This document shows positions 1 through 11,870 of a stretch of 11,870 nucleotides of DNA, one piece after another. The translations under genes were made by a program, and so were the position numbers. The stretch's first letter is position 1; every line of letters starts with the position of its first letter. The notes under the pieces were generated by a model. It saw only the letters and a list, made by a program, of their open reading frames with translations, was not told the origin of the DNA and ran no database searches. Origin of the DNA: a virus (lineage: Duplodnaviria > Heunggongvirae > Uroviricota > Caudoviricetes); the IMG/VR virus record IMGVR_UViG_2636415959_000004. One strand, 5' to 3'.

Positions 1-258
1 ATGCAAACCGTTATTTTTGGTCGTTCGGGTTGCCCTTACTGTGTGCGTGCAAAAGATCTGGCTGAGAAATTGAGCAATGAACGCGATGATTTTCAGTATC
101 AGTATGTAGATATTCGTGCGGAAGGGATCACTAAAGAAGATCTACAACAAAAGGCAGGTAAACCCGTAGAAACCGTGCCGCAGATTTTTGTCGATCAGCA
201 ACATATCGGCGGCTATACCGATTTTGCTGCATGGGTGAAAGAAAATCTGGACGCCTGA
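1..258 (+). CDS. grxA: Glutaredoxin 1
   Basis: 85-aa ORF starting at base 1 with ATG; CPYC active-site motif (GCPYCVRAK) and overall sequence as I remember E. coli GrxA; convergent with the next gene as in the grxA-ybjM neighbourhood. Confidence 0.93.
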   Translation: MQTVIFGRSGCPYCVRAKDLAEKLSNERDDFQYQYVDIRAEGITKEDLQQKAGKPVETVPQIFVDQQHIGGYTDFAAWVKENLDA

Positions 259-267
259 TCGTCTGAC

Positions 268-300
268 AAGCCCTCGCGTTGAGGGCTTTACTGATTTTTT
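268..300. terminator. Hairpin between convergent grxA and ybjM, likely shared transcription terminator
   Basis: Inverted repeat AAGCCCTC (268-275) / GAGGGCTT (281-288) with 5-nt loop, followed on the plus strand by TACTGATTTTTT; overlaps the ybjM stop codon (288-290). Confidence 0.5.
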
Positions 301-665
301 CTGTGCTGTGGTTTAAACAAACTACTGATAAATAAGAAACACAGTGCCCCCAGCGCACACCAGAACACCGCGCTTAGTAACCATGCCAGCTCTTGCCAGA
401 ATGAGCGCGTCGGTGAAAAAAACAGCCGCATAATGAGCATCGAACAGGGTGCCGCCAGCATTGCGCCAAACAGAGGTTTCAGGACTTCTCTACGCTGTGA
501 AAAGAAGCTGGCGACTGCTCCAGGAAGAATGAAAAATAGCAAGCCGATTTCAGGATGCCCGGCAGCCCGAAAAGCGCCTTTCATGTGCGTCGCCAGAAAA
601 AGGCACACCACAATGAAGAGGACAAAACAGCAGATTGCCCCCGCCCAACGTTGTTTATGTTTCAC
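288..665 (-). CDS. ybjM: Small inner-membrane protein YbjM (125 aa)
   Basis: 125-aa hydrophobic ORF with GTG start at 665 preceded by a strong AGGAGGA Shine-Dalgarno about 5 nt upstream; size and position (between grxA and ybjL) match E. coli ybjM from memory. Confidence 0.8.
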   Translation of the reverse strand: MKHKQRWAGAICCFVLFIVVCLFLATHMKGAFRAAGHPEIGLLFFILPGAVASFFSQRREVLKPLFGAMLAAPCSMLIMRLFFSPTRSFWQELAWLLSAVFWCALGALCFLFISSLFKPQHRKNQ

Positions 666-934
666 TCGTTCCTCCTGACACTGCGTCTATCGAACACATT
701 TTTCGCCAGTGTGGCGTTCAGTAAGATAAAGCCGCTTCGCATTCCATGCTAATATAGGCCAACGCAATTCATATAGCCGTTGATACCTAATGTGATTACA
801 CTAGTAAAATATATTGTTACTTTACTATCGTTTAGGTGCGCTGAATGAATCTGCGCCCTGAATTCTGGTAAAAAACATTATCGTAAATTACCATTTCTTT
901 CAACAGCTTACTAGTAAACAAGAAGTTAGCCTCC

Positions 935-2620
935 GTGAATATAAACGTCGCCGAATTGTTAAATGGGAATTACATTCTGTTATTATTTGTGGTCCTCGCG
1001 CTTGGGCTATGTCTCGGAAAGTTACGACTTGGTTCGATCCAACTGGGTAATTCCATTGGCGTTTTAGTCGTATCGCTGTTATTAGGCCAACAACATTTCA
1101 GCATTAACACCGATGCGCTTAATCTTGGCTTTATGCTGTTTATTTTCTGCGTCGGGGTCGAAGCCGGACCGAACTTTTTTTCCATTTTTTTTCGCGATGG
1201 GAAAAATTACCTAATGTTAGCACTGGTGATGGTTGGCAGTGCGCTGGTGATCGCCTTAGGGTTAGGTAAGCTGTTTGGCTGGGATATTGGCCTGACGGCC
1301 GGTATGTTAGCAGGCTCTATGACGTCGACACCGGTTCTGGTCGGTGCTGGCGATACACTGCGTCATTCCGGCATGGAAAGCAGGCAGCTCTCACTGGCAC
1401 TGGATAATCTGAGCCTCGGGTATGCCTTAACCTATTTAATCGGTCTGGTGAGTTTGATTGTTGGTGCGCGTTACTTGCCGAAATTGCAGCATCAGGACTT
1501 ACAGACCAGCGCCCAGCAAATCGCCCGCGAACGTGGCCTGGACACTGATGCCAACCGTAAGGTTTATTTACCGGTGATCCGCGCCTATCGCGTCGGCCCG
1601 GAGCTGGTGGCCTGGACCGACGGCAAAAATCTGCGTGAACTGGGTATTTATCGACAAACCGGCTGCTACATTGAACGTATTCGACGTAACGGGATTCTGG
1701 CAAATCCAGACGGTGATGCCGTGCTACAAATGGGCGATGAAATAGCGTTGGTAGGCTATCCCGACGCCCATGCCCGACTCGATCCCAGCTTCCGTAACGG
1801 TAAAGAAGTTTTCGATCGTGACCTTCTCGACATGCGTATCGTCACTGAAGAAGTGGTCGTTAAAAACCATAACGCTGTAGGTAAACGTCTCGCACAACTG
1901 AAGTTGACCGATCACGGTTGCTTCCTTAACCGCGTCATTCGTAGCCAGATTGAGATGCCGATAGATGACAACGTCGTGCTTAACAAAGGTGACGTTTTAC
2001 AAGTCAGCGGTGATGCCCGTCGCGTAAAAACCATCGCCGATCGCATCGGCTTTATCTCGATTCACAGCCAGGTCACTGACCTGCTGGCATTTTGCGCCTT
2101 CTTTGTTATTGGGCTGATGATCGGGATGATCACCTTCCAGTTCAGCACATTCAGTTTCGGCATGGGGAACGCTGCCGGGTTGTTATTCGCCGGAATTATG
2201 CTGGGCTTTATGCGTGCTAACCACCCGACCTTCGGTTACATTCCGCAAGGTGCATTAAGCATGGTGAAAGAGTTCGGCTTGATGGTGTTTATGGCAGGCG
2301 TTGGTCTGAGCGCCGGTAGCGGTATTAATAACGGCCTGGGCGCGATTGGCGGTCAGATGTTGATTGCCGGATTAATTGTCAGTCTTGTGCCCGTGGTTAT
2401 CTGTTTCTTGTTCGGTGCTTATGTATTGCGAATGAACCGCGCACTGTTGTTCGGCGCAATGATGGGCGCACGCACCTGCGCGCCGGCAATGGAGATCATC
2501 AGTGATACAGCTCGCAGTAACATCCCTGCGCTGGGCTATGCGGGCACCTACGCAATCGCCAACGTCCTGCTGACGCTGGCAGGGACAATCATCGTCATGG
2601 TATGGCCAGGATTAGGATAA
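935..2620 (+). CDS. ybjL: Putative AAE-family transporter YbjL (561 aa) with two central RCK_C/TrkA-C-like domains
   Basis: 561-aa ORF with GTG start at 935; hydrophobic N- and C-terminal membrane domains flank a soluble middle region; length and N-terminus [17 protein letters not shown] match YbjL as I recall it; no obvious SD before the GTG. Confidence 0.9.
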
Positions 2621-2732
2621 AACTGAAGTTGCCCTGAAAATGAAATTTTTTTGCACAACCGCAGAACTTTTCCGCAGGGCATCAGTCTTAATTAGTGCCA
2701 CTGCTTTTCTTTGATGTCCCCATTTTGTGGAG

Positions 2733-2775
2733 CCCATCAACCCCGCCATTTCGGTTCAAGGTTGATGGGTTTTTT
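2733..2775 (+). terminator. Rho-independent terminator downstream of ybjL
   Basis: Stem CCCATCAACC (2733-2742) / GGTTGATGGG (2760-2769) followed by TTTTTT (2770-2775); the T-run is present only on the plus strand, so it terminates ybjL rather than ogr. Confidence 0.55.
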
Positions 2776-2855
2776 GTTGCCTGAAATTTATGCCGTTTAA
2801 AATCATGACGTTAGAAGCACTGTTTTTTAACGATGGCGACAAAATGGCGGCAGCG

Positions 2856-3074
2856 TCAAAGAGAGAGCGCCACCTGTCCTGATTTCATTGGATGCGGCTG
2901 AACCGGATTTGACTCTTTTGGCGTTGCAATCGAACGAACAAAAGTTTCATGGGTTACAAAAGTATGGCTGCAGTTAATATTCTGGCACTGGTTGTAACGC
3001 TCTTTGGTCAATGAAGATACCTGAAAACTGCTGCGAGTATGGGCGGCACTTCCACACAGTGGGCAAATCATCAT
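2856..3074 (-). CDS. ogr: Ogr/Delta-family zinc-finger late-gene transcription activator (72 aa)
   Basis: CPLC...CQNINC four-cysteine zinc-finger pattern and overall resemblance to P2 Ogr / 186 B; ATG at 3074 is preceded by GGGGAGA at the right spacing, and the tracked start at 3107 would place that SD inside the coding sequence. Confidence 0.85.
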   Translation of the reverse strand: MMICPLCGSAAHTRSSFQVSSLTKERYNQCQNINCSHTFVTHETFVRSIATPKESNPVQPHPMKSGQVALSL

Positions 3075-3104
3075 TTTTCGAGTTCTCCCCATTTTTGCTA
3101 AATT

Positions 3105-3140
3105 CACAATAATGATACCGCATTATTCCATTTTGCAAAC
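3105..3140 (-). promoter_or_regulatory. Candidate sigma70 promoter for ogr
   Basis: On the minus strand TTGCAA (3138-3133) and TATCAT (3117-3112) with a 15-nt spacer (alternative -10 TCATTA at 18 nt), upstream of the ogr SD, in the D-ogr intergenic region. Spacing is suboptimal; motif match only. Confidence 0.3.
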
Positions 3141-3164
3141 TTAAAAGTTCTCCATTGCGAAGAA

Positions 3165-4265
3165 TCATTCCATTTCGAAATCATCAATCCTCACTTCAAG
3201 CTCCAGACTGGTCGTAAAACCGTTATCCGAGCTGACGGTATGTGTCAGAGTCGTAATGGTCCATTCCGCATCATCTATCGGCTGTTTAAAACCACTGACC
3301 TTCACAGGCATTTCCGTGTAGAGATCTGCCCGCCCTTCTGCCAGTTGTAGCGAGAATGACGCAACGCCGCGTTGCAGGCGTTCCCACTGCATTTTCGCCG
3401 CTCGTTCGGCGTTGCTCCGGTTGGCATAAGTGCGATTAAGTACCAGCACGTTTTCATCCGTACCCACCAGGTAATCGCCCTGCTTCGCTTCCGGCTCTTT
3501 CTTCTGCTTCTTAGTTCTGCGCTTACGCTTCACCGTGGTGCTTTCTTTCTTCGCAGGTTCGCGGGTATGCAACCAGCTGGCAATTACGCCCGTGTAAGCT
3601 CCGCGATCTGCCAGGGTAAATCGGTGACTGTCGCCGTCCTTGCGTGTGATAGTGATCACTGGCAGTGGTTTACCAGTGGCGCTTTTGCCCTGTCCCTGCC
3701 GAATGAATAACAGATTGCCATTTTTCACCGACGCAATAGCACCGTACTGGCGCGCCAGCCGCATCAGAAAACTGCCGTCACTCTCATTAGTCTGGTCTAT
3801 ATGTTCCACGGGCTTATCCGACAGGTCTTTACCCAGTGCCATCTTCAGCTTGTGACGCGCGGCTATTTCCTTCACCACTTCCCCAACTGTGGTCTTGTGC
3901 CACGATTTTTCACGGCGGGTATTCAGCGTTTCCCGAAAATCAGCACTTCGCGCCCGGATAGTCAGGCGGTCCGGTGCGCCAGTGTGTTCAATCTCGTCCA
4001 CTGTGAATGCCCCTTTCGGGAAAAGCGGCTGCCCCTTCCAGCCTAGCGCCAGCGTAATGACCGCACCACGGCGCGGCAGCGCTATTTTTCCATCGGCGTC
4101 ATCCAGCTCCAGATCAAGCTGGTCCGCTTCAAAGCCCCGGTTATCCGTCAGCGTCAGACTCATCAGGCGGTTATCCAGCACAGTGGTGATATCCCTGCCC
4201 TCAATACTGATACTGAATGCCGGAGTTTTGTTGCCTTTGTTAAGCAGCTCAGAGCTGAAATTCAC
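3165..4265 (-). CDS. D: Phage tail protein D (late control gene D family), 366 aa
   Basis: Resembles P2 gpD as I recall it and sits in the conserved T-U-D-ogr order; GTG start at 4265 overlaps the U stop (GTGA), suggesting translational coupling. Confidence 0.88.
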   Translation of the reverse strand: MNFSSELLNKGNKTPAFSISIEGRDITTVLDNRLMSLTLTDNRGFEADQLDLELDDADGKIALPRRGAVITLALGWKGQPLFPKGAFTVDEIEHTGAPDRLTIRARSADFRETLNTRREKSWHKTTVGEVVKEIAARHKLKMALGKDLSDKPVEHIDQTNESDGSFLMRLARQYGAIASVKNGNLLFIRQGQGKSATGKPLPVITITRKDGDSHRFTLADRGAYTGVIASWLHTREPAKKESTTVKRKRRTKKQKKEPEAKQGDYLVGTDENVLVLNRTYANRSNAERAAKMQWERLQRGVASFSLQLAEGRADLYTEMPVKVSGFKQPIDDAEWTITTLTHTVSSDNGFTTSLELEVRIDDFEME

Positions 4266-4747
4266 GACAGCAGCCCTCCCACCGTTTTACTGATATCGCT
4301 TAAGGCAGATGTTGCCGTTTCCTGCAGATTATTCAGTTGCGCACTGAGATCACCGAACATATCGGACAGGGATTCATCCACCCGTTTGAGCGACAGGGTG
4401 AACTCAATCCGGCGCGGCATACCGTCGCGGAAAAACTCCGTTTTAGTCTGATTCAGTCCCTCAATCACATACATGCCGTAAATCGTGCCGCTACCTTCAA
4501 TCAGGGGCCATGCTTTCCCCTGTTCTGCCATCTGCTCCAGAGCCAGCAACGACAGCCTGCCGCCTGTTATCTCCGGCATAAGAACACCGGAAAGCGTCAG
4601 CATGTCGTTGTCCGGTCCCAGAAACTGCGTGGACGGACGACGGTTTACCCGACTGTTTGCCGCATGTCGCCAGCTACGTTGATACTGCAGTTCCTGATAC
4701 GGCACGGTGCGCAGCATAAACACATACAATCCCAGTACCATCATCAT
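4262..4747 (-). CDS. U: Phage tail protein U (161 aa)
   Basis: N-terminus MMMVLGLYVFMLRTVPYQ and length match P2 gpU from memory; ATG start overlaps the T stop (ATGA). Confidence 0.88.
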   Translation of the reverse strand: MMMVLGLYVFMLRTVPYQELQYQRSWRHAANSRVNRRPSTQFLGPDNDMLTLSGVLMPEITGGRLSLLALEQMAEQGKAWPLIEGSGTIYGMYVIEGLNQTKTEFFRDGMPRRIEFTLSLKRVDESLSDMFGDLSAQLNNLQETATSALSDISKTVGGLLS

Positions 4748-7626
4748 GCGTCGTATCCCCCCTGATCGCTGTAGTTACTCCTGGCCTTTGCCTTCATCCT
4801 GCGTTCACGTTCATCAAGCTGGCGTGCCACCTCCCGCGCAATATCCTGCGCACTTTGTCCTGGCTGCGTCTGAATGATGATCTGCGTCGGTGCCTCAATC
4901 CGGTGAACGGGCGGCACAGTGGCTGCACGACTCATCATCGCTTCGCCGCCTTTCGCGGGAAGTGCCAAAGGATGCAACGGTGGAAGCTCTGCAGGCGCGG
5001 CAGCAACGCCCATCATTCCGGCAACAACGGCAGCCAGTGCAGCTGTATTTCTCCGGCTGGTCACATTTACCGGGCCGTTAACAATTTCCGGCCCGTTTTC
5101 ACCGACGATGCCAAACTGCCCGCGCGGGATATAGCCGCCGCTGTCATACATCCCCGCAAAGCCATATCCCCATGACGGAAAACCACCCGATGGCATCATC
5201 ACTTTACCGTCTGCATTCACCGTCGCAGGTTGCTGACGCGTCACTCTTTCCGGCAGTTTCGCCTTTGCAGCCTCTTTACTGACAATGCCGAGTTTCTCCA
5301 GCAACCAGGAAACGCCGGATTTCAGGGAGTCCAGCGGATGCATGACCATATTCAGCCCTTCCGCCAGTGCCTCCCCGAATCGTCGCCCCATTGCCGCTGC
5401 GCTCTGCAGTTCGGCAGAGGTCGACTTAACGGGCGTCAGCAGATCAGTAAACCAGCCCCACAGCGCCTGTACTTTGTCGCCAATCCACTGGAACACTGGC
5501 TTAAGCGGTTCGAATGCTGCACTGACGGGACCTGCCGCCGCTTTGAATCCTTCCACCACGCCACCAAGAAATGCGGTGATGGGTTGCCAGTATTTCCAGA
5601 CAACCAGCGCCACGCCCGCCAGTGCAGTAACCACAAGACCTATCGGACTGAGCAGAGCACCTAACAGACCAGATACGGCATACAGGGCAACGCGCAGCAT
5701 CGCCAGTGGACCAGATGCCAGTATTCGCAGCACCGTGCCTGCGGAGGCCAGTCCACCGCGCAGTACCGCCAGAGGATTCATAAACATCACAGCAACAGCA
5801 CGTAAACCGGATAATCCAGACCGCAAAAGTGCAACCGGCGCACCTGCTACAGTTTTCAGGACATTTCCCGTCAGTGATGCCGTGCGGCGCAAAGACGACA
5901 ACGGCGCAGTAAGTAAACCTGCGGCGTTGCCCGATGAAGCAAGCCCGCGTCGCAGCAGTGCAAGTGGTGCGCCAGCCAACCAGGACAACGCGCTGCTGGT
6001 TCGCGTTACTGCTGCCGTAACGGAAGGTAACGTTTTGATACCCAGCACAGAGAATCCCAGACGGATGACTGCCAGCGGCCCCAGCACAGCAGCCAACACC
6101 ACAGCCAGGGTGCCGAGGCCCACAGTAACAGCAGCCACAACCGCTGCTACTTTCATCAGTGTGCCCGTCAGTTCAGGGTTAGCTTCCACCCAGCAACGCA
6201 ACGCCCCCGTGATGCTTTTCACCGTGTACAGAATATCCATCAGCGGCTGGCGCAGCGTTTCGCCCAGGCTGCTGAAGGTGTTCTGCGCTCCGGTTTTGAC
6301 CAGCAACCACTGCGCAGAAAGTGAGTCCTTGTTAATGTCGGATTCTTTCTGCATCGAACCGAGCGCATCATTGCCCGCTGTCAGTTTTAGCTGGCGCTGC
6401 AGTTCCGGCAGGTTGTTTGCCAGTTTCGCCGCATCATCGCCAAACTCTTTACCAAACAACATGGTCATGGCAGACAGGCGCTTATCCTGCGGCAGTGCAT
6501 TCACCTTCTCCAGTACGCGCTGGATAGTTCCCATCGCATCCTTCGTCATCTGCTTTTCAATCACTTCAGGATTGAGTTTCAGCAGATTCATTCCTTCAAA
6601 GAAACTCTTGCTTTGCATGGTCGCAATGGACAATTCACGCACCATCGCGTTGGCAGCACTGGCAGCGACCTCCGGCGCAGCACCCAGTGTCAGGAAGGTG
6701 GAACCCAGCGCCGCCGCTTTACGATAATCCAGACGATCAGCCACACCGCCCAGGCGTTGCATGACATCAATGATGTCTGCCCCTTTCGACATAGCGTTAT
6801 CATCCAGATAGTTCAGCGCATCACCGAGCTGTTCAATATTGCGGGTTGGTATTTTGTAGAGCTGGGCGATTTTCCCCAGACTTTCTGACAGTTCATCCGC
6901 TGGCAGCTCAAAGGCTGTTGCCGCCTTTGCTGCCGTACTGGCGAAGGCCAGCAGGTCACGTTTCTGGTCCTCCCAGCTGTCGTCAGGGTTTGCCACATTC
7001 ATGCGCGCACCACCTTCAACCAGTGCGGCGAAGTCCACAGCACCGTTTTCCATTGGCAGCTGTTCACTGGCAGCTTTGATGGCATCCTGCATTTCGTAAA
7101 AACGCGCAGTGCGGTTGCCATTATCGTCACGCAGACCATTGACCTGCTTTGCCACACCTTTCATGGCATCTTCCATGCTGGTATAGCTTTTTACCGCCGC
7201 CATCACTGGCGCGCCCATTGCCAGCCCTGCAGCCGTGGTGGTGGCTCCGGCTCCTGCGATGCGATCGCGCACTTCAAGCCGTCTTGAGTATTGTTCTCTG
7301 GCAGCGTTCATCCGTGCCTGTTGTTCACCCAGACGTTTAAGTGCTTTTTGCTGGCCCTCCAGTGCCTGACGAGTTTCTTCGGCATTTTTCTTAAGTTCTC
7401 GCTGGGCACTACTGAGTTGTCTGGTATCAATCCCTGATTCTTTAAGTGCCTGACGTTGTCTCTGGACCGCCCCCAACAAGCCGTTATAGGTCTGCTGAAG
7501 TTCCTGTACCCGGCTGATGGCCCAGCGGGCGTCACGCCACAAATCACCGCTGGCTTCTGCCAGTTCCTCGCCTCGCTTCACACCGGATGCCGTGGCGTCA
7601 TAGTCCTGGTATCGTTCGTTGAGCAT
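4744..7626 (-). CDS. T: Phage tail tape measure protein (about 960 aa from ATG 7626; the tracked ORF uses TTG at 7671)
   Basis: Very long ORF directly upstream of U with coiled-coil-like N-terminal half, a hydrophobic glycine/alanine-rich central region with degenerate tandem repeats (GAPxALLRxGL-like) and a C-terminal GYIPRGQFGIVGENGPEIV motif typical of tape measure proteins. The 5' end is uncertain because an in-frame stop lies 2 codons upstream of the TTG and the region abuts a rearrangement junction. Confidence 0.85.
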   Translation of the reverse strand: MLNERYQDYDATASGVKRGEELAEASGDLWRDARWAISRVQELQQTYNGLLGAVQRQRQALKESGIDTRQLSSAQRELKKNAEETRQALEGQQKALKRLGEQQARMNAAREQYSRRLEVRDRIAGAGATTTAAGLAMGAPVMAAVKSYTSMEDAMKGVAKQVNGLRDDNGNRTARFYEMQDAIKAASEQLPMENGAVDFAALVEGGARMNVANPDDSWEDQKRDLLAFASTAAKAATAFELPADELSESLGKIAQLYKIPTRNIEQLGDALNYLDDNAMSKGADIIDVMQRLGGVADRLDYRKAAALGSTFLTLGAAPEVAASAANAMVRELSIATMQSKSFFEGMNLLKLNPEVIEKQMTKDAMGTIQRVLEKVNALPQDKRLSAMTMLFGKEFGDDAAKLANNLPELQRQLKLTAGNDALGSMQKESDINKDSLSAQWLLVKTGAQNTFSSLGETLRQPLMDILYTVKSITGALRCWVEANPELTGTLMKVAAVVAAVTVGLGTLAVVLAAVLGPLAVIRLGFSVLGIKTLPSVTAAVTRTSSALSWLAGAPLALLRRGLASSGNAAGLLTAPLSSLRRTASLTGNVLKTVAGAPVALLRSGLSGLRAVAVMFMNPLAVLRGGLASAGTVLRILASGPLAMLRVALYAVSGLLGALLSPIGLVVTALAGVALVVWKYWQPITAFLGGVVEGFKAAAGPVSAAFEPLKPVFQWIGDKVQALWGWFTDLLTPVKSTSAELQSAAAMGRRFGEALAEGLNMVMHPLDSLKSGVSWLLEKLGIVSKEAAKAKLPERVTRQQPATVNADGKVMMPSGGFPSWGYGFAGMYDSGGYIPRGQFGIVGENGPEIVNGPVNVTSRRNTAALAAVVAGMMGVAAAPAELPPLHPLALPAKGGEAMMSRAATVPPVHRIEAPTQIIIQTQPGQSAQDIAREVARQLDERERRMKAKARSNYSDQGGYDA

Positions 7627-7772
7627 GGCGCGTGCCCAGCAGTAAACCGCCTTTAACGAACTGGTGGACAAGCTGAGTCATGAAGACAGCCGCCAGGACT
7701 ACCGCCAGCGTGCAACAGGCGGTAACGCCCCCGCTGACACTCTGACCAATTGCTGATGGAGCACAAAACCCG

Positions 7773-8128
7773 ATGAAGAAGAATACCCGCTTTGCTTTTA
7801 ACGCTTACCTGCAGCAGCTGGCGCGTCTGAACGGTGTGGCAGTTGAAGAACTGTCCAGCAAGTTCACCGTGGAGCCGTCTGTGCAGCAGACGCTGGAAGA
7901 CCAGATCCAGCAATCCGCCGCATTCCTGACGCTGATTAACGTCACGCCAGTGACTGAGCAGTCCGGTCAGTTGCTGGGGCTGGGTGTTGGCAGCACCATT
8001 GCCGGAACCACTGATACCACCGCAAAAGAGCGTGAGCCTGTCGATCCGACGCTGATGGTCGATGTGGAATATAAATGTGAGCAGACCAACTTTGACACGG
8101 TGCTGACCTACGCGAAGCTGGACCTGTG
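7773..8128 (+). pseudogene. Truncated 5' fragment of a P2-type major capsid gene (gpN family), about 118 codons
   Basis: First ~118 residues (MKKNTRFAFNAYL...FTVEPSV...YKCEQTNFD...LDL) align with the P2 gpN N-terminus as I remember it; similarity stops near 8128 and the frame then runs antisense to a minus-strand ORF. Orientation is opposite to the tail genes, so the fragment is inverted. GGAG lies 11 nt upstream of the ATG. Confidence 0.72.
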
Positions 8129-8151
8129 TACGAGATCCATTGCATCAGCCA

Positions 8152-8391
8152 TCAGTGGATCTCCTGCGCTTCGTTCTGGATTGCTTCAGCAGTCACACGC
8201 AGCAGTTCTGCCGCTTCGACGTGGTTTAGCTGGCGGGAGGTGATATGACACGCCAGGCTATCGAGGCGAGCAGCCATTGCTTCAGCCCTTGCCCGGCGTT
8301 CTTCCAGACGAGCCTCTGTCAGTAAAAGATTAAGACCTGCATCATCCGGTCCGGTTTTGGTCGTGAGGGTTTCAATATTACGCATAAGCAA
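8152..8391 (-). CDS. Hypothetical small early-region protein (79 aa)
   Basis: ATG at 8391 preceded by AGGAG about 7 nt upstream; charged, probably helical protein; no family recognised; its stop lies about 25 bp from the capsid-fragment junction. Confidence 0.45.
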   Translation of the reverse strand: MLMRNIETLTTKTGPDDAGLNLLLTEARLEERRARAEAMAARLDSLACHITSRQLNHVEAAELLRVTAEAIQNEAQEIH

Positions 8392-8452
8392 TTCTCCTGA
8401 ATTTAGATAAAGGGATGCCCGGCGGGTTTACGCCATTAATTTCATTAGTTGG

Positions 8453-8794
8453 TTAATTCGGCATGGTTAGCCGTCTGGGAAATAAGCTCACCACTGCACG
8501 AAAATGATTCATTGCTTTAATCAACTCCCGCTTTTCGTCAGTGGTCAGCTCATTAATGCTGATGCTATGACGTTCAGCTGGAATTTTTGCCATAAAGAAT
8601 ATGGCAGCCAGTGCCCGTTTATTTTGTTCATTATTGATATCCCGAGGATCACGCATATCTTTAATAAACCGCTCAAGCTCTGACTCAATATTCAAACCAA
8701 AAACTTTCGCCCTTAACTCCGCAATATGATTAAGTCCATTCAGGCGTTCACCGGGTCTTAATGGAACAGTCGCCGCAGCGCCTTCAATAGCCAT
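8453..8794 (-). CDS. Hypothetical early-region protein (113 aa)
   Basis: ATG at 8794 preceded by GGGGGA; its start overlaps the upstream small ORF by 37 nt, a phage-like arrangement; no family recognised; occupies the post-cII position where 186 carries host-takeover genes such as fil and dhr (positional analogy only). Confidence 0.5.
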   Translation of the reverse strand: MAIEGAAATVPLRPGERLNGLNHIAELRAKVFGLNIESELERFIKDMRDPRDINNEQNKRALAAIFFMAKIPAERHSISINELTTDEKRELIKAMNHFRAVVSLFPRRLTMPN

Positions 8795-8958
8795 TTGTTC
8801 CCCCGTTTTTTCGTAGATAGTTCTGCCAGCAATTCATCTTGTGAACGGCACGGATGCCAGCGTTTACCATCCTCACCCATGATCCAGCCGTGACCGTAGT
8901 GCATTGCCGGACTTTGTTTTACTAGCAGCGATGCAAATGATGGTTCTTTCGTCAGCAT
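8758..8958 (-). CDS. Hypothetical small early-region protein (66 aa from ATG 8958; tracked GTG start at 8988 gives 76 aa)
   Basis: ATG at 8958 lies immediately after the cII stop with GGTG 4 nt upstream; basic C-terminus; no family recognised. The start is uncertain. Confidence 0.4.
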   Translation of the reverse strand: MLTKEPSFASLLVKQSPAMHYGHGWIMGEDGKRWHPCRSQDELLAELSTKKRGNKWLLKALRRLFH

Positions 8959-8965
8959 AAGCACC

Positions 8966-9475
8966 TCACAGCAAACCGAATGAAGCACCGAGGCCAGTCA
9001 CGGTATCAACTGCACTCGCCATCGCAGGATTAGCCTGTAAACGGGCCTGCAATGAAACAGCAGCCAGCGCCATCAGTCGTGTAACAGAGTTAATGCTGCT
9101 GATCGCATCACGACGGCCTGCACTGGTTTTTACATCGCCAGAAACCGCACCTGCCGCGACACGCCCTATCTCTGCAGTTGCACTCATGACGTAATGCGGC
9201 AGTTTCTCTTTTGCCACCTCATTAATCGGTACACATGGCAGGCAGTGAATCTGTGCCAGAAAGCCATCTACCAGCGTTGAATCTTCAGTCAGATCGGTAA
9301 GCAACCAGATTTCTGGTGCGGTTAATAAATGAGGTTGAGCTGGGTTCAGCTTGTTCCGCAGAATCTGCACATTCATGCCTGCACGTTCTGCCAGTTGCAC
9401 TAGGTTGTGGCGCAATGCGAATGCACGACAGGCTTCATCAAAATGTGGATGTTTGGAAACTTGGTAATCAAACAT
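8966..9475 (-). CDS. cII: Phage 186-type CII transcriptional activator (169 aa)
   Basis: From ATG 9475 the product starts [20 protein letters not shown]... and is 169 aa, matching the 186 CII (CP76) family in length and in sequence as I recall it; GAGG lies about 9 nt upstream; position right after the apl-like gene is as in 186. The tracked TTG start at 9481 adds two residues. Confidence 0.82.
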
Positions 9476-9507
9476 GGTCAATGCCTCTGATGTATTTCAG
9501 AATCGAA

Positions 9508-9729
9508 CTAATTAAGGTTTAGATTGCATTCTGAAAGCGCATCAACGGTCATGGCTGCTATGTTGATCATCACTTTTTCACGTTTTTTATCTTTGCGCAG
9601 ACGGTGACGGATAAGGCGTCCGTCAGCCAACATGTCATTGATGGTATCGATGGACAGCCCTGTCAGCTCGCTATAGCGTTCAATAGTCACATGAGGCGTG
9701 GTAAGAGTGATTGAAATGTTAGGTCTCAT
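9508..9729 (-). CDS. Putative Apl/Cox-type excisionase and switch regulator (73 aa, helix-turn-helix)
   Basis: Small ORF that is the first gene of the leftward operon, divergent from cI and upstream of cII (the position of 186 apl / P2 cox); HTH-like segment [25 protein letters not shown]; AGGAA about 9 nt upstream of the ATG. The assignment is mainly positional. Confidence 0.55.
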
Positions 9730-9854
9730 GATGCAACATTCCTCGTTTAATGATGATTAATCAGGACGAATACGGATCGTTTGTATTTTGTGAACACCAT
9801 AAACATACGATCGTACAGTGAAATCGTCAAGATAAAAGTTCACTTGGAGTGACC
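9730..9854. promoter_or_regulatory. Immunity switch region between the divergent apl-like and cI genes (expected lytic/lysogenic promoters and operators)
   Basis: 125-bp AT-rich intergenic region between divergent regulators; contains imperfect dyad symmetry around 9770-9815 (GATCG...GTATTTT...AAACATAC...CGATC) that could be repressor operators. No promoter hexamers assigned with confidence. Confidence 0.4.
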
Positions 9855-10424
9855 ATGAATTTGGAGAAAGGCGGACGAGGCGCTATAGAGCGCATGGTAG
9901 AAGCTTATGGATTCAAAACTCGACAGGCGTTGTGCGATCATTTAGGAATCTCTAAAAGTACACTCGCCACACGCTACATGCGTGACTCATTCCCAGCAGA
10001 ATGGGTAATCCAGTGCGCCCTTGAAACGGGCACCTCGCTTAATTGGCTCACAACCGGACATGGTTCAAAGCAAACTTCAGGTAATACAAATACTATGGAA
10101 GTTGCTAAATATGTATTATCTGATGGTGCCTTGCGTGAAGACGGTTTTTATATTTTTGATAAGGGATTTCTACCCTCTACGTTTAAAAAACCTTTTGTCA
10201 TCACAGATAACAATTCTGAATTTATTTGTGATAAAGAATTTGATGATATACGTGACGGTAAATGGGTAATAAGTATTGATGGCGAAATAACAATCCGCGA
10301 CATTACTCGTTTACCCGGTGGAAGAATCTTCGTTGAAGGTGGAAACAGAGCCTTCGAGTGCAAGATAGAAGATGTTGAAATAATTGGGAAAATTATAAGT
10401 TTAACAATTAAGTACGTTAGGTAA
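9855..10424 (+). CDS. cI: Phage 186-type CI repressor (189 aa from ATG 9855; tracked GTG at 9849)
   Basis: N-terminal domain (EAYGFKTRQALCDHLGISKSTLATRYMRDSFPAEW...CALETGTSLNWLTTG) matches the phage CI-repressor HTH family; length matches 186 CI (about 192 aa); GGAG 5 nt upstream of ATG 9855; divergent from apl/cII and upstream of int on the same strand. Confidence 0.82.
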   Translation: MNLEKGGRGAIERMVEAYGFKTRQALCDHLGISKSTLATRYMRDSFPAEWVIQCALETGTSLNWLTTGHGSKQTSGNTNTMEVAKYVLSDGALREDGFYIFDKGFLPSTFKKPFVITDNNSEFICDKEFDDIRDGKWVISIDGEITIRDITRLPGGRIFVEGGNRAFECKIEDVEIIGKIISLTIKYVR

Positions 10425-10439
10425 TACCGGGAGGAAACT

Positions 10440-10631
10440 ATGCTTGGTAAGGTATTTTTTGTGGTTTTATCATGCTCTTTGTTATTAAACCCACTAACTA
10501 CCTATGCTAAAAATTATCCTTGTTCTGGGAAAAAGGGAGGTGTCTCTCACTGTACCTCCGATGGAAAGTTCGTTTGCAATGATGGAACTATTAGTAAATC
10601 AAAAAAAATCTGTACTAAAAACTCGCGATAA
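10440..10631 (+). CDS. Small secreted cysteine-rich protein (63 aa; predicted signal peptide plus ~40-aa mature domain with 4 Cys), possible lysogenic-conversion cargo
   Basis: Strong SD GGGAGG (10429-10434) 5 nt before the ATG; hydrophobic N-terminus with a likely signal-peptidase site after TTYA; mature part is Lys/Gly/Ser-rich with 4 Cys; AT-rich; inserted between cI and int on the same strand. Confidence 0.5.
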
Positions 10632-10764
10632 ATTTTGCTTTTATATCTGCGCCTAATATAACAATGAGCCGCAGGCTAACCGCAAAAGTCACATACTCAC
10701 ATAGCAAAAAATAGCCAACTTCATTATGGCTTCAGTGAGATGTATGGTCGCAGGATTTCATACA

Positions 10765-10793
10765 TTGACACTGGTTATATATACAGTAAAAAT
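10765..10793 (+). promoter_or_regulatory. Candidate promoter upstream of int
   Basis: Perfect -35 TTGACA (10765-10770) followed at 16-17 nt by a weak A/T-rich -10 (TAAAAA / AAAAAT). Motif match only. Confidence 0.25.
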
Positions 10794-10817
10794 GCTCTCT
10801 ATTGGAGGGCATTTTTT

Positions 10818-11870
10818 ATGGCAGTACGAAAACTCACCACAGGAAAATGGCTTTGCGAATGTTACCCCGCCGGACGTAGTGGGCGTCGTGTGCGTAAACA
10901 ATTCGCCACCAAAGGCGAAGCTCTGGCTTTTGAGCGCCATACGATGGAAGAAACCGAAGCAAAGCCCTGGCTGGGAGAATCAGTGGATCGTCGAACACTG
11001 AAAGACGTGGTTGAGCTATGGTTCAAACTACATGGTAAATCTCTAACCGCTGGGCAGCATGTCTATGATAAATTGCTGTTGATGGTTGACGCTCTGGGCA
11101 ATCCCCTTGCAACCGATCTCACCTCTAAAATGTTTGCCCACTATCGAGATAAACGCCTGACAGGTGAGATCTACTTCAGCGAGAAATGGAAGAAAGGAGC
11201 AAGCCCGGTCACCATTAACCTGGAGCAAAGCTATCTAAGTAGTGTTTTTAGCGAACTATCCCGCCTGGGCGAATGGTCGTATCCAAACCCACTGGAGAAC
11301 ATGCGAAAATTCACCATCGCAGAAAAAGAGATGGCATGGCTTACCCATGAGCAGATTGTTGAACTGCTGGCTGATTGCAAACGTCAGGACCCAATTCTGG
11401 CACTGGTAGTCAAGATATGCTTAAGCACAGGCGCACGCTGGCGAGAAGCAATAAACCTTACCCGATCACAGGTGACTAAATACCGAATTACCTTTGTAAG
11501 AACGAAGGGGAAGAAAAACAGAAGCATCCCTATCAGTAAAGAGCTTTATGAAGAGATCATGGCGCTTGATGGGTTCAATTTCTTCACAGACTGCTATTTT
11601 CAATTTTTATCCGTGATGGAAAAAACGTCAATCGTGCTCCCTCGCGGTCAACTGACACACGTTCTGCGCCATACGTTTGCGGCGCATTTCATGATGTCGG
11701 GTGGAAATATCCTTGCTTTGCAAAAAATCCTCGGACATCACGATATAAAAATGACTATGCGTTACGCTCATCTGGCACCGGATCATCTGGAAACGGCGCT
11801 CCGTTTCAATCCTCTGGCAACGCTGCCAAGTGGCGACAAAGTGGCGGCAGCGGTTGGCATTACCCCGTAA
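10818..11870 (+). CDS. int: Tyrosine recombinase, P2/186-type phage integrase (350 aa from ATG 10818)
   Basis: Resembles P2 Int as I recall it; catalytic signatures HxxR (LRHTFAAHF) and C-terminal tyrosine (MTMRYAHLAP); GGAGGG about 8 nt upstream of ATG 10818, so the tracked start at 10740 is a spurious 5' extension; the stop codon is the last 3 bases of the window. Confidence 0.9.
   Translation: MAVRKLTTGKWLCECYPAGRSGRRVRKQFATKGEALAFERHTMEETEAKPWLGESVDRRTLKDVVELWFKLHGKSLTAGQHVYDKLLLMVDALGNPLATDLTSKMFAHYRDKRLTGEIYFSEKWKKGASPVTINLEQSYLSSVFSELSRLGEWSYPNPLENMRKFTIAEKEMAWLTHEQIVELLADCKRQDPILALVVKICLSTGARWREAINLTRSQVTKYRITFVRTKGKKNRSIPISKELYEEIMALDGFNFFTDCYFQFLSVMEKTSIVLPRGQLTHVLRHTFAAHFMMSGGNILALQKILGHHDIKMTMRYAHLAPDHLETALRFNPLATLPSGDKVAAAVGITP

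Follow-up and report, generated by a model that had tools for sequence, protein, structure and literature searches.

P2-type prophages at the small RNA (sRNA) gene rybB have been described before. In Escherichia coli, Archer et al. (2011; PMC3032704) listed three P2-type elements at the 'rybB ncRNA' (Rybb*W; Rybb*B, bearing retron Ec86; and Rybb*Cr), together with a remnant consisting of ogr and D' at cyaR in strain K-12 (their Table 2). A related element, Kpn38RybB, is known from Klebsiella (Hudson et al. 2014; PMC4048246), and in a survey of integration hotspots, hotspot #29 comprised only Felsduovirus prophages in rybB, from 109 genomes (Hochhauser et al. 2023; PMC10121019). Some of the P2-like elements published from rybB are defective. 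Here, we analysed the 11,870-nt viral record IMGVR_UViG_2636415959_000004 (hereafter, the window), of which positions 2779–11870 almost certainly constitute a defective prophage of the P2/186 family—a 9.2-kb remnant inserted in rybB and adjoining ybjL. The kind of element is ordinary and already documented, and the exact sequence is present in public assemblies.

The left 2.7 kb of the window is ordinary E. coli chromosome, and from 2779 to the window end all sizeable open reading frames (ORFs) are phage-like. Identity to K-12 is unbroken from ybjL to position 2778 and homology ends at 2779, directly behind rybB. The Rfam model RF00110 matches this gene over its full length (model positions 1–79 of 79; 105.3 bits at a gathering score of 40), and RybB is the sole match in the window at the Rfam gathering threshold. 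In K-12 MG1655, the gene order is ybjL, rybB, rcdA, the prophage is absent, and there is a single copy of the 14-bp core ATGGGTTTTTTGTT, which corresponds to the 3′ half of the rybB terminator stem plus the U-tract. The window itself stops at the int stop codon, and we read attL from an identical public contig (L008; GCA_000768425.1, JPKI01000003.1), retrieved by an exact-protein look-up with the chimeric capsid ORF described below and 100% identical to the window over all 11,870 bases. On this contig, a second copy of the core lies 75 bp beyond the int stop codon, at window-equivalent positions 11945–11958 (75–88 bp past the window end). The sequence beyond it is the right flank of K-12 (one mismatch in the stretch inspected), with rcdA ~100 bp from int. 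The core is the sole exact repeat of at least 12 nt common to both prophage ends, and exactly two copies surround each element that we examined at the rybB site.

The phage copy of the core is an exact substitute for the last 14 nt of rybB, and rybB is therefore unchanged by the integration: the insertion lies at the 3′ end of an sRNA gene that is regenerated in full length and identical to that of K-12. With int and ogr at opposite ends and a duplicated core flanking them, the arrangement is that of a phage whose attP lies between int and ogr. Moreover, the predicted attP (left half of attL, core, right half of attR) aligned without gaps to the int–ogr junction of the Klebsiella phage record KP12_3 (OM835953) at 275 of 281 positions. 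A separate hairpin, AACCCGTTTACATAAATGGGTT, lies on the phage side of attL and uses the same 3′ half.

A preliminary description of this DNA, made from the sequence alone, had anticipated several of these features. It had K-12 free of a prophage after ybjL—where indeed only rybB and then rcdA follow—and expected a direct repeat past int, which we found as the two copies of ATGGGTTTTTTGTT. It had placed the att core within 2776–2855, but the boundary (2765–2778/2779) falls in the rybB terminator, and only 3 nt of the core reach into that interval. The actual target between ybjL and the prophage, the sigma-E-dependent sRNA gene rybB, had gone unmentioned. Of the two observations it had named as contrary to an integrated prophage—no repeat beyond int, or phage genes continuing there—neither was made: the core recurs, and what comes next is rcdA. 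As for a strain-variable insertion, the K-12 site is empty, but occupation of the site is not rare, with a rybB–ogr junction in 1109 of 5426 complete RefSeq E. coli genomes (~20%).

The interval 2776–2855 does hold a repeat of a different type. A 22-nt direct repeat (2834–2855 versus 11831–11852; 21 of 22 nt identical) can be broken down into four TG[C/T]CGCCA[C/T][C/T][T/G] motifs, two on each arm, which share one orientation and agree with YAYCGCCAYTY, the consensus given for Int arm sites in the phage 186 record. The repeat is probably a pair of Int arm-type sites and not the core. Where cargo follows int in other strains, the terminal 44 bp of this int, sites included, persist next to attL as a detached non-coding block, and this persistence fits a cis-acting role of the putative arm sites. 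The cargo slot between int and attL is empty in the window's element; in two other strains, it holds a 270-nt hypothetical ORF (L002 18881–19150, L012 9239–9508), and in strain BE2-5, a gene for a Panacea-domain protein and a partner gene (L014 9708–10936).

As regards family, the order T-U-D-ogr ends at the att site, with the genes arranged and oriented as in P2, 186, Cartapus, and the prophage of E. coli S56, and the products match the P2-family (Peduoviridae) domains Ogr_Delta, Phage_GPD, Phage_P2_GpU, PhageMin_Tail, Phage_cap_P2, and Phage_GPL. A CI protein with Phage_CI_repr and Phage_CI_C domains is encoded divergently from an apl–cII–fil operon, as annotated in 186. Judged by its sequence, the element is a P2-family phage with P2-type late-gene order and a 186-type CI/Apl/CII switch. 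All genes named in the preliminary description were found in the orientation given there, with ogr pointing toward ybjL and int toward the window end, as expected for the two outward-facing ends of such a prophage.

Between these ends, most of a phage is missing. From core to core, the remnant measures 9,180 bp, compared with 34,433 bp for its intact counterpart in S56 (same site, between rcdA and ybjL; locus L003), in agreement with the earlier estimate of about 9 kb versus 30–34 kb and with its conclusion that most structural genes are lost. Using this S56 prophage as the blastn reference for breakpoints (Table 1), we found every retained segment to be 92–99% identical at the nucleotide level, whereas three blocks of 13,543, 1,731, and 9,913 bp (S56 21798–35340, 19912–21642, and 9510–19422; 25,187 bp altogether) are missing. 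Lost with them are E/E′, FII, FI, the fibre, baseplate, and lysis genes, M, most of N and O, P, Q, cos, the cargo genes, A, and dam; in the ORF list of the window, there is no gene for A, P, Q, M, holin, lysozyme, V, W, J, I, H, FI, or FII. The remnant thus does not possess the full set of replication, packaging, head, lysis, and tail genes, which marks it as a defective derivative and not a viable member of the family.

This loss is not one simple deletion, as it left three junctions, a 155-bp island of L, and an inverted fragment. Junction J1 (between T′ and L) shows an imperfect 8-bp microhomology, TCCTG[T/C]AC; J2 (between L and the O/N block) one of ~5 bp, ACCGC; and J3 (between the O/N block and the early region) one of 2 bp, TG. 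No insertion sequence (IS) element is involved at any of the three. The O/N block comprises the last 117 nt of the scaffold gene O, the 16-nt O–N spacer, and the first 356 nt of N, and lies in the opposite orientation to all other phage segments by blastn against S56. On the early side of J3, window position 8127 corresponds to S56 9509, inside a TraR/DksA-like gene (S56 9484–9711). Across the junctions run two chimeric frames: a 975-aa L′–′T ORF (4744–7671, minus strand), in which Phage_GPL positions 79–134 match residues 6–61, and the N′ frame, which continues into antisense DUF2732 sequence up to a stop at 8243 (7773–8243, plus strand, 156 aa). Public annotation lists L′–′T as a 960-aa 'tail tape measure protein' and N′ as a 156-aa 'major capsid protein' or 'hypothetical protein'; both are junction chimeras, not genes. 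The gene inventory of the preliminary description is likewise to be amended: all its genes are present, but T is truncated and fused to L, and the 'capsid fragment' is the inverted O/N block. The 'few small ORFs' can now be named as DUF2732, DUF5347, fil, and a ydcA-like gene.

Several P2-like prophages per genome are common in E. coli (a median of three matching places where there is any), and the rearranged interior might have arisen when reads from such relatives were assembled together; one metagenome scaffold with the same junctions (L007) is patchily divergent. However, the ORF for the 156-aa chimeric N′ protein occurs on 233 contigs from independent assemblies in NCBI, ENA, and Logan (E. 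coli KTE108 among them), some of them megabases long (L008 lies on a contig of 1.24 Mb, and the longest contig with this ORF measures 4.66 Mb), and a derived form of the remnant keeps the same junctions. An assembly artefact is therefore hardly conceivable. The occurrence on 233 contigs argues that the junctions are real and that the remnant is passed on within a lineage. Of the 5426 complete genomes, compared with the junction region 7350–8350, none spans any of J1–J3 or represents an intermediate.

The derived form (L005, L009, and 19 similar places) has lost window-equivalent positions 3280–4567 and 4647–5229, and hence the greater part of both D and U and a further part of T, while a 79-bp island of U and J1–J3 are kept; its own junctions show homologies of 2–4 bp. 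Among the places we read, this form is seemingly commoner than that of the window. In scaffold L007, we counted 113 differences, clustered in D, T′, and the DUF5347–fil–cII stretch (3501–7600 and 8501–9500), and zero in the chromosomal flanks or the cI–int end. This pattern suggests either that another P2-like prophage recombined with this one or that the assembly consensus is chimeric, and we did not use these differences as a gauge of the age of the remnant or of selection on it.

Table 1 Features of the window, with their counterparts in the S56 prophage (locus L003) for collinear segments.
Feature	Window position	Strand	Basis or counterpart
grxA	1–258	+	chromosomal flank
ybjM	288–665	−	chromosomal flank
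ybjL	935–2620	+	chromosomal flank
rybB sRNA gene, intact, bacterial attachment target	2700–2778	+	Rfam RF00110
attR core ATGGGTTTTTTGTT, 14 bp	2765–2778	+	last 14 nt of rybB
Two tandem putative Int arm-type sites, TGTCGCCATCG and TGCCGCCATTT, ogr-side arm	2831–2852	−	motif scan and 22-nt repeat
ogr (186 B gene), zinc-finger late-gene activator, intact, 72 aa	2856–3074	−	Pfam Ogr_Delta 5e-22
D, tail gene, intact, 366 aa	3165–4265	−	Pfam Phage_GPD 1.3e-27
U, tail gene, intact, 161 aa	4262–4747	−	Pfam Phage_P2_GpU 1.9e-44
T′, tape-measure gene lacking its first 309 nt (103 codons)	4744–7512	−	blastn to S56; Pfam PhageMin_Tail
L fragment, head-completion gene, 155 bp, fused in frame to T′	7502–7656	−	blastn; Pfam Phage_GPL
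Inverted O/N block, 489 bp	7640–8128	+	blastn; Pfam Phage_cap_P2 positions 1–111 of 327
N′, P2-type N-terminal capsid fragment	7773–8128	+	Pfam Phage_cap_P2; identified by PHROGs/Pfam
TraR/DksA-like zinc-finger gene, first 26 nt, early side of J3	8127–8152	−	blastn to S56
DUF2732 early gene, intact	8152–8385	−	Pfam DUF2732 4.1e-29; phrog_128
DUF5347 early gene, intact	8453–8794	−	Pfam DUF5347 8.7e-33; phrog_602
fil, 186-type cell-division inhibitor	8758–8958	−	Pfam Phage_186_Fil 2.5e-24; 82% aa identity to 186 Fil
cII, 186-type lysogeny-establishment activator	8966–9475	−	Pfam Phage_CP76 3.4e-42; 69% aa identity to 186 CII
apl, Cox-like excisionase/repressor	9508–9729	−	phrog_575 6.1e-31; position as apl in 186
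apl–cI switch region	9730–9854		gene layout as in 186 annotation
cI, 186-type immunity repressor, intact, 189 aa	9855–10424	+	Phage_CI_repr 2.8e-33, Phage_CI_C 2e-28
ydcA-like ORF, 63 aa, between cI and int	10440–10631	+	phrog_6000 4.6e-34
int, tyrosine integrase, intact, 350 aa	10818–11870	+	Int_N 3e-32, Phage_integrase 7.2e-22
Two tandem putative Int arm-type sites, TGTCGCCACTT and TGCCGCCACTT, within int 3′ end	11828–11849	−	motif scan and 22-nt repeat
Segment: chromosome, ogr, D, U, T without its first 309 nt	1–7512		S56 42852–35341 (S56 T start, 35032)
Segment: 155 bp of L, oriented as T	7502–7656		S56 21797–21643, 94.8% identity
Segment, inverted: O end, O–N spacer, first 356 nt of N	7640–8128		S56 19423–19911
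Segment: TraR/DksA-like first 26 nt, DUF2732, DUF5347, fil, cII, apl	8127–9743		S56 9509–7879
Segment: cI, ydcA-like gene, int	9882–11870		S56 7720–5730

We propose the following history for the remnant. A temperate P2-family phage would have entered rybB when Int joined its attP, located between int and ogr, to the 14-bp core; the phage copy of the core would have restored the rybB terminator exactly and left the sRNA gene intact. Later, illegitimate recombination at the level of microhomologies would have removed ~25 kb in blocks of 13.5, 1.7, and 9.9 kb, this decay leaving behind the 155-bp L island and the inverted 489-bp O/N fragment. The remnant would then have passed vertically in an E. 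coli lineage, one branch of which has since lost most of D and U and more of T.

We found nothing that contradicts this identification, but the account has weaker points. The ancestor may have differed from S56 in gene content, S56 being only 92–99% identical and the cargo of these phages variable. The three junctions may have arisen in one event or in several, no intermediate having been found among the 5426 complete genomes, and attL lies outside the window and was taken from the identical public contig. What we say below on immunity, excision competence, and silence of the tail genes is argued by analogy with characterized phages.

Full-length open frames remain for ogr, D, U, DUF2732, DUF5347, fil, cII, apl, cI, the ydcA-like gene, and int. 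At the amino acid level, Ogr is 100% identical to the S56 copy (54–55% to 186 B and P2 Ogr), D 98% identical to the S56 and Cartapus copies, and Int 99.4% identical to that of S56 (54% to 186 Int), its stop codon being the last codon of the window. The family PF27300 (YdcA) is assigned to a gene identical to the ydcA-like ORF in L005–L009, and the gene also occurs in S56, HL15, and other strains. Around this ORF, the local G+C content is 37–40%, compared with 53–59% in the tail genes; the hydrophobic N-terminus of its product suggests an exported protein. We found no defence proteins among the retained proteins with PADLOC and no tRNA in the window with ARAGORN.

At the switch, the apl–cI intergenic stretch (9744–9881) has no blastn match in S56, although its flanks match at 92–93%. 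This divergence probably reflects a different immunity specificity within the group of rybB phages. CI is 88% identical to the S56 copy at the amino acid level, and strain HL15 shares the window's version of the region. A promoter scan returned a candidate sigma-70-like pR at 9830–9802 on the minus strand; over the window, promoter and terminator counts equalled shuffled expectation (9 versus 9.2 and 9 versus 9.3, respectively), and the scan was not used as evidence. The position that tum, the gene for the antirepressor of SOS induction, occupies in 186, beyond gene A, falls within the deleted region; if the phage ever had this gene, it would have been lost there.

In its present state, the remnant lacks cos and all genes for replication, terminase, portal, head, lysis, baseplate, fibre, sheath, and tube, and it can neither form particles nor kill the cell. 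By analogy with 186, we infer that CI still represses pR, and probably the ogr promoter too, and that this repression would make the cell immune to homoimmune phages. With Int, Apl, and both att sites present, excision could still take place, and the excised element, unable to replicate, would be lost. The loss of E/E′, FII, and FI also removed the pF/pJ late promoter, judging from the gene maps of P2 and 186, and T′, U, and D are therefore probably silent.

Intact int and apl genes, both att sites, and a small size are also what one would look for in a functional mini-element, resembling a satellite or a phage-inducible chromosomal island (PICI), that is excised and then packaged by a helper P2-like phage. 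Yet the cos region, which in the gene order of 186, P2, and S56 lies between the portal gene and the replication/cargo region, falls inside the 9.9-kb deletion; there is neither a replication gene nor a primase, nor any gene for capsid-size control or helper exploitation; and the interior consists of gene fragments and chimeric frames with 92–99% nucleotide identity to an ordinary prophage. Such a mini-element is thus highly improbable. A phage satellite of the P4-like or PICI-like kind was also rejected as a class assignment, in view of the absence of replication/primase or helper-exploitation ORFs and the deletion of the cos-bearing region, and so was an R-type, P2-tail-derived tailocin, the only tail genes left being D, U, and a truncated T.

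The rybB site holds at least five other independent remnants with different breakpoints, namely those of strains HL15 (9,691 bp core to core), WCHEC050613 (10,506 bp, with an IS1 at the deletion joint), LR-27 (6,064 bp), L9 (7,489 bp), and BE2-5 (7,486 bp). In all of them, ogr, apl, cI, the ydcA-like gene, and int are kept. This shared retention by six independent remnants, the full-length state of the frames from ogr to int listed above, and the presence of the window's remnant on at least 233 contigs could indicate domestication, that is, maintenance by selection in addition to, and not in place of, decay. The proposed benefits are superinfection immunity through CI, cross-talk of Ogr with P2-like prophages or P4-type satellites, or the ydcA-like gene. 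The two ends, however, survive any internal deletion by construction, and loss of cI while lytic genes are present would be lethal, so that survivorship alone predicts the pattern. In addition, the L005/L009 branch is losing D, U, and T′, and no defence-system model matches any retained protein. We therefore consider domestication possible but doubtful; survivorship explains the recurrent retention of the same two ends without selection.

This retention and the deletion–island–deletion architecture are the only features of the remnant that are even mildly unusual. The lineage shows the sequence 'deletion, short retained island, deletion' in two instances, one of which includes an inverted fragment. 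A joint reading, in which an active immunity/excision cassette (CI, Apl, Int, and the att sites) is combined with recurrent decay by template switching, seems to us unlikely, a series of independent deletions being the alternative for the island pattern. Were the cassette active, the lineage would be shielded from 186-type phages that target rybB, and their landing site would be occupied. For annotation, the locus is best described as a defective prophage of the 186 type in rybB, and beyond this correction, the finding is of little importance. The rybB site does illustrate how P2-family prophages decay: at least six remnants keep the immunity/integration and ogr ends and lose all lethal or costly parts.

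Compared with the published rybB elements, the window's remnant shares target and phage family but has its own breakpoints, and no complete RefSeq genome shares its junction region, which extends to the remnants of E. coli W, B, and Crooks if these strains belong to the complete-genome set. Unlike rybB elements with retron Ec86 (Rybb*B) or defence systems, it carries no such cargo by PADLOC. The ogr–D′ remnant of K-12 at cyaR represents the same end state of decay, with ogr retained.

Among the characterized phages, 186 (Eganvirus, NC_001317) resembles the remnant in the layout of its switch—apl, cII, and fil in one direction, cI and int in the other—as well as in the position of attP between int and B/ogr and in an Int arm motif of the YAYCGCCAYTY type. 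Amino acid identities amount to 69% for CII, 82% for Fil, 54% for Int, and 54% for B/Ogr. In contrast to the remnant, however, 186 uses the tRNA gene ileY as its integration site; identity is only 32% for CI and ~50–55% for the structural proteins, and dhr of 186 has no tblastn match. P2 (Peduovirus, NC_001895) shares the order T-U-D-ogr next to the att site, and the tail, capsid, and Ogr proteins are 48–55% identical to those of both P2 and 186. It differs in its C/Cox switch, which has no cII, fil, or 186-type CI, and in its attachment site; of the early genes, only int matches (35%).

Apart from the rearranged middle, the segment is collinear with Cartapus, KP12_3, and the S56 prophage in the comparison with P2-like phages that the preliminary description had proposed. 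Cartapus (Elveevirus) is 96% identical at the nucleotide level over the tail and early genes, with D, U, T, cII, and fil products 98–99% identical, but is a complete phage genome with another int (54%), another cI (41%), and cargo between int and ogr. KP12_3 has the same int and the same attP. Both records contain genes that have disappeared from the remnant, among them, in the partial KP12_3 record, the replication genes. With ~95–96% nucleotide identity over the shared parts, Cartapus and KP12_3 are the nearest sequenced relatives of the remnant.

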